DNA of 64,000 bases from an uncultured Pelagibacteraceae bacterium. Its GTDB lineage: Bacteria; Pseudomonadota; Alphaproteobacteria; Pelagibacterales; Pelagibacteraceae. Below the pieces are notes generated by a model. It ran no database searches and was not told the origin of the DNA. It saw nothing but the letters and a program-made list of their open reading frames with translations. The stretch spans positions 6,876 through 70,875 of the forward strand of contig CACHSP010000003.1 in NCBI GenBank assembly GCA_902582605.1, read 5' to 3'. Positions 24,455-30,912 of this stretch are shown piece by piece; the stretch's first letter is position 1, and every line of letters starts with the position of its first letter. Made by a program: the position numbers and the translations under genes.

Positions 24455-24459
24455 TTTTA

Positions 24460-24517
24460 CTCCTTTTTTAGTGCTTTTGCTTTATGCAAGGCGCACAATA
24501 CAGTTCAAATGCCTACC
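24460..24517 (-). ncRNA. SAM-V riboswitch
   Basis: Minus strand GGUAGGCAUUUGAACUGUAUUGUGCGCCUUGCAUAAAGCAAAAGCACUAAAAAAGGAG; H-type pseudoknot ending at the metY SD. Confidence 0.92.
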
Positions 24518-24533
24518 GATTTTATGAGAATTT

Positions 24534-29892: not shown

Positions 29893-30352
29893 TAGGTAAT
29901 ATTTATTTACTATTATCTAAAGTATTACATTAAGTATTTAATATAAACTATTGTATTTATTGTATTTTATAAAAATTATAAATAATATAGATTTAGAATA
30001 TTTTGAATTATTTAATGTTAAAATCGCATTAATATGCTCTATAAGAGTAGTGATTAATTACAAATTATGAAAAACATCAAATAACCTTTTAAAATAGGGA
30101 CTTTTTCAGATTGTGGTTATAAAAATTCCAAAAAAATAGGGCAGTTCAAAAGCATTGATATAGTTGAATAGTAGAGCGATGCACTAATTGAATATAGCAT
30201 TTAAACGCCCATAGAGGGGTCTATTTTTAGTATAGGCTGATACATGGTACAACTAAAGGGTGAATTATGTTATTTAAAAAGTAATCTCACAAAAAGGTAA
30301 AAAAGCGTTGATTTTACTCACTTTTTTAACTTAAAAAAGGTTTAAAATAGCT

Positions 30353-30628
30353 CTAAATAGCTACTTTTTCAGATCTTAGTAATTTGAGCTTTTGTTTGAT
30401 TCCACCTCTACCAGAGTAGCCTCCAGGAGCTCCATCAGATCTAATTACTCTATGACAAGGTATTTTTGGGGCATATGGGTTTTTAGCACAAGCGTTAGCG
30501 ACTGCTCTGGCTGATTTAGGGCTGTTTATGGCAGCAGCAACTTGTTTATATGTTCTTATTTTACCTTTTGGTATAGTTTTGAGGTATTTCCAGACTTTTA
30601 ATTGAAATTTAGTGCCTTTAAGATGCAT
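30353..30628 (-). CDS. ogt: Minimal O6-methylguanine-DNA methyltransferase (MGMT domain)
   Basis: FQLKVW, ARAVANA, active-site PCHRV, GYSG; start at MHLKGT with AGGA just upstream (ORF-track extension to 30691 rejected). Confidence 0.9.
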   Translation of the reverse strand: MHLKGTKFQLKVWKYLKTIPKGKIRTYKQVAAAINSPKSARAVANACAKNPYAPKIPCHRVIRSDGAPGGYSGRGGIKQKLKLLRSEKVAI

Positions 30629-30643
30629 TTTTCCTGAGAAAAC

Positions 30644-30820
30644 TCTGTTTCCTTGCACTTTTAAGGGTGCAAAGAACAGATGTTTTGGCACGTCGTTGAT
30701 GCGCTACCGCCATGCCTCCCGTTCTGCATGTTCAGCGATGCTTTGCAGAACTTTCTGCCCCTTGGATTTGTACCTCTCGGCTTTTGCCCAATTGGCCAGT
30801 TAAGGGTTGCCCCTTAATTC
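30644..30820 (-). ncRNA. GC-rich structured RNA of unassigned class upstream of ogt
   Basis: About half GC in an AT-rich genome; at least five stems; GCAA and GAGA tetraloops on the minus strand; terminal hairpin followed by GUUUU. Confidence 0.75.
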
Positions 30821-30912
30821 ATTTAAATACTAACAGATATGATTTAAAAGCTGTATCACCTTTTAATTGATTTTTAAAATTTACAGCAATTCATGTGAAT
30901 ATTGGGGATAAA

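Follow-up and report, generated by a model that had tools for sequence, protein, structure and literature searches.

The G+C-rich structured element on the minus strand of the window (the whole 64,000-nt stretch of Pelagibacteraceae DNA that was analyzed) is a complete gene for IMES-2, a known SAR11 small RNA. When the whole window is scanned against Rfam, RF02035 is matched over its full length (144.8 bits, gathering score 54.7; E = 1.3e-37; all 141 model positions), and IMES-2 is the only one of the IMES families matched here. The explanation that best covers all the evidence, and in our view a very probable one, is that IMES-2 is a self-contained RNA gene with its own promoter and terminator, whose product would act in trans and from which the neighboring gene ogt would be reached by read-through (Table 1). 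We establish here the identity, structure, cassette boundaries, distribution and genomic context of this gene. The first-pass annotation had proposed a structured RNA whose coordinates and sequence all match the minus strand at 30644-30835; it had set aside tRNA, 5S, SRP, RNase P and tmRNA, with which the Rfam result agrees, and its tentative suggestion of an IMES-type marine RNA was correct. As it had also foreseen, the Rfam match takes away novelty and leaves reality untouched: the element is real but already catalogued, and it adds no RNA class.

SAR11 is the most abundant bacterial clade of the ocean, and IMES-2 is reported to be among its most abundant transcripts. The RNA was reportedly first described from marine metagenomes by Weinberg, Perreault, Meyer and Breaker in Nature in 2009; it is said to be exceptionally abundant in marine metatranscriptomes and reportedly was afterwards found in the SAR11 isolate HIMB114. 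We know of no function assigned to it so far. The window copy shares with the family its four helices, the GCAA and GAGA tetraloops, the GCAGAAAG junction and the GUAGCGC-type loops, is likewise marine, confined to SAR11 and single-copy, and may be highly abundant as well; nothing essential differs, and it is a member. Relative to the IMES-2 covariance model, what is added here is a terminator hairpin, a loop-loop pseudoknot, a promoter bearing 9-mers that resemble DnaA boxes, and genomic contexts that alternate. IMES-1, IMES-3, IMES-4 and IMES-5 resemble IMES-2 as stand-alone structured RNAs of uncultured marine bacteria, abundant in metatranscriptomes and without known function, but are different families in both sequence and structure.

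Table 1. Features of the IMES-2 cassette and its nearest neighbors, in window positions.
Feature	Positions	Strand	Basis or remark
IMES-2 RNA	30685-30824	-	Rfam RF02035 match; four helices, P1-P4
P1, UUAAGGG-GCAA-CCCUUAA	30817-30800	-	Sequence
P2, long, tipped by GCC-GAGA-GGU	30799-30755	-	Sequence
P3, GUUCUGCA/UGCAGAAC	30751-30721	-	Sequence
P4, GGCAUG.../...CGUGCC	30716-30687	-	Sequence
Putative pseudoknot arm in P3 loop, CGCUG	30733-30737	-	Covariation (helix 6)
Putative pseudoknot arm in P4 loop, UAGCG	30702-30706	-	Alignment and covariation
3' hairpin + G + UUUU, predicted intrinsic terminator	30639-30680	-	Beyond the Rfam model
Extended -10, TG-T-TAGTAT (TAGTAT at 30832-30827)	30827-30835	-	Alignments; same distance at all loci
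Promoter-upstream box, ATCAATTAAAAGGTGATAC	30853-30871	-	Alignments; GTGATA core nearly invariant
Abutting DnaA-box-like 9-mers, TTATCCCCA + ATATTCACA	30894-30911	-	5' edge of the cassette
ogt, 91-aa single-domain O6-alkylguanine-DNA alkyltransferase (PCHRV)	30353-30628	-	PF01035, 111.7 bits
Small membrane ORF, 70 aa	30913-31125	-	Upstream, co-oriented with IMES-2

The element differs from its genome in base composition (51% against 29.6% G+C), and a 206-nt stretch has a minimum free energy of -70.8 kcal/mol, against -50.2 ± 4.0 kcal/mol for dinucleotide shuffles (z = -5.1). Two GNRA tetraloops, GCAA and GAGA, cap helices of the RNA, and purine-rich junctions are conserved in the family. Counted on an alignment of 69 distinct IMES-2 copies, which represent 13 genera, the Rfam structure has standard pairs in 93.1% of the cells, and both sides change in 34 of the 44 pairs. 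None of 500 shuffles reaches these values, and sliding the partners by one to three columns leaves only 31-43% paired. The structured RNA of the first-pass annotation stands up to this comparison of homologues, which it had itself proposed.

Could the structure be a by-product of G+C content in a region that encodes a small protein, for example in the antisense ORF at 30612-30803? Three plus-strand ORFs of 45-63 aa do overlap the element. However, the substitutions in the helices are compensatory, the Rfam match has an E value of 1e-37, and a stop-free frame across the RNA, counting any frame, is present in only 8 of 72 homologues. The ORF at 30612-30803, in which a conserved coding signal had been named as grounds for abandoning the RNA, is itself unconserved, and we leave a coding reading of the region practically no probability.

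Beyond the four helices, the loops of P3 and P4 share a GUAGCGC-type motif and are complementary to each other. A five-pair helix between them is 97.4% paired, and three of the five pairs covary (CG to UA or AU, GC to AU or UA), examples from different genera being GCACU/AGUGC, GUGCU/AGCAC, GAACU/AGUUC, GUACU/AGUAC and GUUCU/AGAAC. In the subclade of the window the helix is displaced by one pair, so that CGCUG faces UAGCG with one G.U. Covariation thus supports a kissing pseudoknot joining the P3 and P4 loops, and this support may be new beyond the Rfam model. For P4, the outer GGCAUG/CGUGCC helix proposed in the first pass holds, whereas the inner hairpin GCG-GUAG-CGC is weaker than the combination of the Rfam P4 extension and the pseudoknot. 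Across the 69 homologues this inner hairpin is 87.9% paired, with 12 and 4 sequences unpaired at two of its three pairs; it competes with the loop-loop pairing for one and the same CGC, and the pseudoknot with the Rfam P4 extension reaches the 97.4% given above.

These pairings also bear on the reading of IMES-2 as a classical trans-acting sRNA that base-pairs with its targets, its seed being either the junction GCAGAAAG or the 3' part of the P4 loop, ACAACGAC. Several single-stranded stretches are indeed nearly invariant, and the gene has a promoter and a terminator of its own, as typical sRNAs do. Yet almost the entire molecule is held as helices by covariation and its best-conserved loops pair together, a behavior typical of RNAs that depend on shape and not on a seed. 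We consider a base-pairing sRNA unlikely.

Beyond the part described by the Rfam model come a 37-nt hairpin (-16.7 kcal/mol; 30680-30644) and then G and UUUU (30643-30639), so that 30680-30639 carries the G+C-rich hairpin and following U-run by which an intrinsic terminator is recognized. Wherever the flanking sequence is long enough, the locus has a strong hairpin here (about -16 to -25 kcal/mol), usually with the U-run next to it; the run is UUUU in the subclade of the window (UUU in the two closest relatives) and five to nine U in relatives. Hairpins of different genera are unrelated in sequence; in the window's genus the arms show compensatory changes. We read it as a predicted intrinsic terminator that forms part of the IMES-2 gene, an assignment that is perhaps new with respect to the covariance model. 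This hairpin and the extended -10 both fall outside the fixed rules of a simple promoter and terminator scanner, which therefore listed neither; the hairpin was omitted for its 8-nt loop and the mere four U that follow.

On the 5' side, the TAGTAT hexamer that had been noted as resembling a -10 just upstream of the RNA is present and is preceded by TG-T, which makes it an extended -10. The motif, TGnTAnnnT or TGnTTTAAT, keeps the same spacing at all loci, about 7 nt before P1, and the start of the transcript is predicted at about 30819-30821. A GTGATA box lies some 40 nt upstream of IMES-2 and, like the -10, is kept in all genera and in four different genomic surroundings. Farther upstream comes a tandem DnaA-box-like 18-mer, which all 13 aligned genera retain, again in four contexts unrelated to one another. 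With at most one mismatch, TTATCCACA (sense strand, -91 to -68) is matched at 59 of 72 loci, as opposed to 0.5% of random 75-nt segments from the same loci, and many genera have a perfect TTATCCACA at this upstream position. The TTATCCCCA and ATATTCACA of the window fit the DnaA 9-mer consensus TTATNCACA at the conserved position, a resemblance by sequence. Since the element falls within the last part of the mnmA reading frame in one genus but outside that frame in others, coding does not account for its conservation. A portable promoter equipped with DnaA-box-like 9-mers might be new.

What does the 18-mer do? Control of the IMES-2 promoter by this element, about 75-90 nt upstream, is a doubtful proposal drawn from sequence resemblance and position, under which the 18-mer would be a site for DnaA or for another regulator. 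Binding of DnaA, if it occurs, would couple the level of IMES-2 to replication or to growth state, and IMES-2 could then serve as a growth-state effector. In the 78%-complete genome of the window, the pair pattern of the 18-mer occurs once and the combination of GTGATA box and -10 is unique to the IMES-2 site; since neither is found elsewhere in this genome, no regulon can be defined. A cluster of DnaA boxes marking oriC was also sought in the draft genome in order to confirm the box type that SAR11 DnaA uses, and none was clear.

IMES-2 is a SAR11-specific, single-copy and dispensable RNA gene. A single copy is present in the genome of the window (0.97 Mb and 78% complete) and in each of the 22 IMES-2-positive genomes in a sample of 37 from the same genus. 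Across the Pelagibacteraceae it is found in 82 of 151 genomes and in 14 of the 19 genera sampled, always with one copy per genome, and in the sister family in none of the 24 genomes searched. In the window's own genus, only 1 of 20 complete genomes of high quality carries it; as many complete genomes of the genus lack it, the RNA is dispensable. Scanning all species genomes for an exact pattern yields at least 120 matching records, and all 80 record titles among the matches listed name Pelagibacteraceae, Candidatus Pelagibacter or SAR11. Viral contigs gave no match with the pattern used, and a phage origin of IMES-2, considered as a candidate, was set aside on this result.

The surroundings of the gene change from one lineage to another. 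In the genus of the window the order is a divergent tyrosine recombinase, small ORFs, IMES-2, ogt and a convergent EamA transporter, with ogt behind IMES-2 in 22 of 23 fetched loci (the 23rd ends before the gene). In ten other genera mnmA precedes IMES-2, and the convergent gene behind the RNA encodes a 376-aa protein that has no Pfam match; one genus has an SLT transglycosylase and an SNase-like nuclease upstream and a convergent SRAP peptidase downstream, and another has SelO upstream. In a further set of 120 species genomes, the arrangement with ogt is seen in 68 and that with mnmA in 49. The window's own mnmA locus lacks both IMES-2 and its usual neighbor, and tblastn did not find the convergent protein of about 376 aa in the genome of the window. 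The tyrosine recombinase (PF00589 + PF02899; 31171-32124, plus strand) lies divergently beside the cassette in all loci of the genus and in 59 of the 120 further loci, 57 of which also have ogt downstream. Between the convergent ogt and EamA genes, about 460 nt (29893-30352) are free of ORFs, and a similar gap is seen in all loci of the genus.

Two genomes of the window's genus, G024 and G013, keep ogt without IMES-2. The synteny of G024 is the same, but the entire IMES-2 cassette is absent and the stop codon of the small membrane ORF overlaps the ogt ATG (TGATG; locus L023, about 1490-1505), which suggests that the two genes are translationally coupled there. In G013, a complete genome, ogt sits after an unrelated gene. 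The cassette, consisting in order of the DnaA-box-like 18-mer, the GTGATA box, the extended -10, the four-hairpin RNA and the hairpin with its U-run, thus moves or is lost as a whole, and ogt is independent of it. As judged from gene order, ogt stands behind IMES-2 in one genus only, and the link between this DNA-repair gene and the RNA is an accident of that genus. The description of the element as an "ogt leader" has therefore to be given up, because most other genera have no co-oriented gene behind the RNA and genomes of the same genus keep ogt alone.

In the window, AGGA (30635-30632) is followed by the ogt ATG at 30628, 10 nt past the U-run (5-20 nt across the genus), too close to leave room for a promoter of its own. 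In this genus ogt is probably transcribed by read-through of a leaky IMES-2 terminator; a stand-alone sRNA with terminator read-through into ogt, one of two possibilities raised in the first pass, fits the anatomy found here. The other possibility was a ligand-sensing attenuator: a cis-acting riboswitch whose four-helix domain would sense a ligand (an alkylated base, for example) and set the read-through into ogt. The short distance without room for a promoter speaks for it in this genus, and the RNA is aptamer-like in its size and in its complexity of GNRA loops and pseudoknot. However, the next gene is convergent in at least ten other genera, so there is nothing to regulate, and G024 and G013 keep ogt in other arrangements without IMES-2. 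No antiterminator was found either: duplexes between the 5' arm of the terminator and the RNA core equal those of shuffled arms (median z -0.05 over 70 loci, with no locus below -2). The 3' arm of P3 in the window is partly complementary to the terminator 5' arm, a candidate pairing that was rejected, being without conservation in relatives and no better than shuffles. With neither a downstream gene conserved across genera nor an antiterminator pairing, the attenuator does not survive the comparison. We regard a riboswitch as highly improbable, and the ogt arrangement at 68 of 120 further loci, a point in its favor, leaves a small chance to a lineage-specific role in cis. Transcription-terminating riboswitches share with the window a structured domain followed by an intrinsic terminator before a coding gene, a likeness confined to this genus; IMES-2 differs from them in that the gene downstream is not conserved across genera, an antiterminator is absent and no ligand is known. 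A tempting but wrong reading is thus removed, as the ogt link belongs to a single genus.

Metatranscriptome contigs agree with a self-contained RNA gene. The IMES-2 stretch is present in 14 RNA runs, out of 19 runs from nine studies that contain it. For four runs from four studies, contig depths sum to 1e3-2.5e5 across 30664-30825, but to 0-18 immediately upstream of 30826 and to 10-1000 across ogt; these depths come from Logan contigs, which pool close relatives and from which strand, exact ends, true levels, expression rank and the read-through fraction are unobtainable. The RNA contigs end on the 5' side at 30817-30825, with a depth of 0-18 beyond. At the other end, depth drops 10-100 fold across the 3' hairpin (30637-30690) relative to the RNA core, and contigs of low depth (15-75) span the hairpin into ogt. 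Depth on the RNA lies orders of magnitude above that on ogt, which counts against a riboswitch as a hint only. One contig end, joined to an adapter, falls at 30686, and the mature RNA may be 3'-trimmed just after P4, near 30685, instead of being defined by the terminator. The depths hint at a discrete RNA of very high abundance, sharply bounded on its 5' side and with little read-through.

How might such an RNA work? The IMES-2 transcript, some 140-185 nt long, would start from its own extended -10, served by two conserved upstream elements, and would end at its own hairpin and U-run. It folds into four helices with two GNRA tetraloops, and the kissing pseudoknot would lock the P3 and P4 loops. 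A shape kept by covariation, the mobility of the cassette as a whole and an apparently high abundance together argue that IMES-2 acts in trans as a folded RNA, a mode suggested by its architecture. Most likely, though we hold this tentatively, it binds or scaffolds a protein or another abundant partner; roles as an antisense-type regulator or as a riboswitch are less likely. Read-through into ogt in this genus would be a local by-product and not the purpose of the RNA. The boundaries of the IMES-2 gene are now set, from promoter boxes through RNA to predicted terminator, and the details of the cassette, the putative kissing loops and the upstream elements offer handles for work in a SAR11 culture that carries IMES-2.

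6S RNA (RF00013) is the archetype of abundant RNAs that sequester a protein; IMES-2 has in common with it a single copy, apparent abundance, structural constraint, an own promoter and, if the proposed mode holds, action in trans. 6S RNA is, however, a rod with a central bubble; IMES-2 has no such rod and no Rfam match to 6S. Ten SAR11 genomes, five IMES-2-positive and five IMES-2-negative (G004, G008, G013, G061, G072, G083, G092, G101, G118 and G133; nine at least 95% complete, G008 92%), have no 6S match, while control genomes do match. Mutual replacement of 6S and IMES-2 was considered and dropped: the two show no complementary distribution, and absence from all ten genomes says nothing either way. 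In the window itself, the Rfam scan yields no 6S match; the same scan places a SAM-V riboswitch aptamer (RF01826, 86.9 bits) on the minus strand at 24457-24523.
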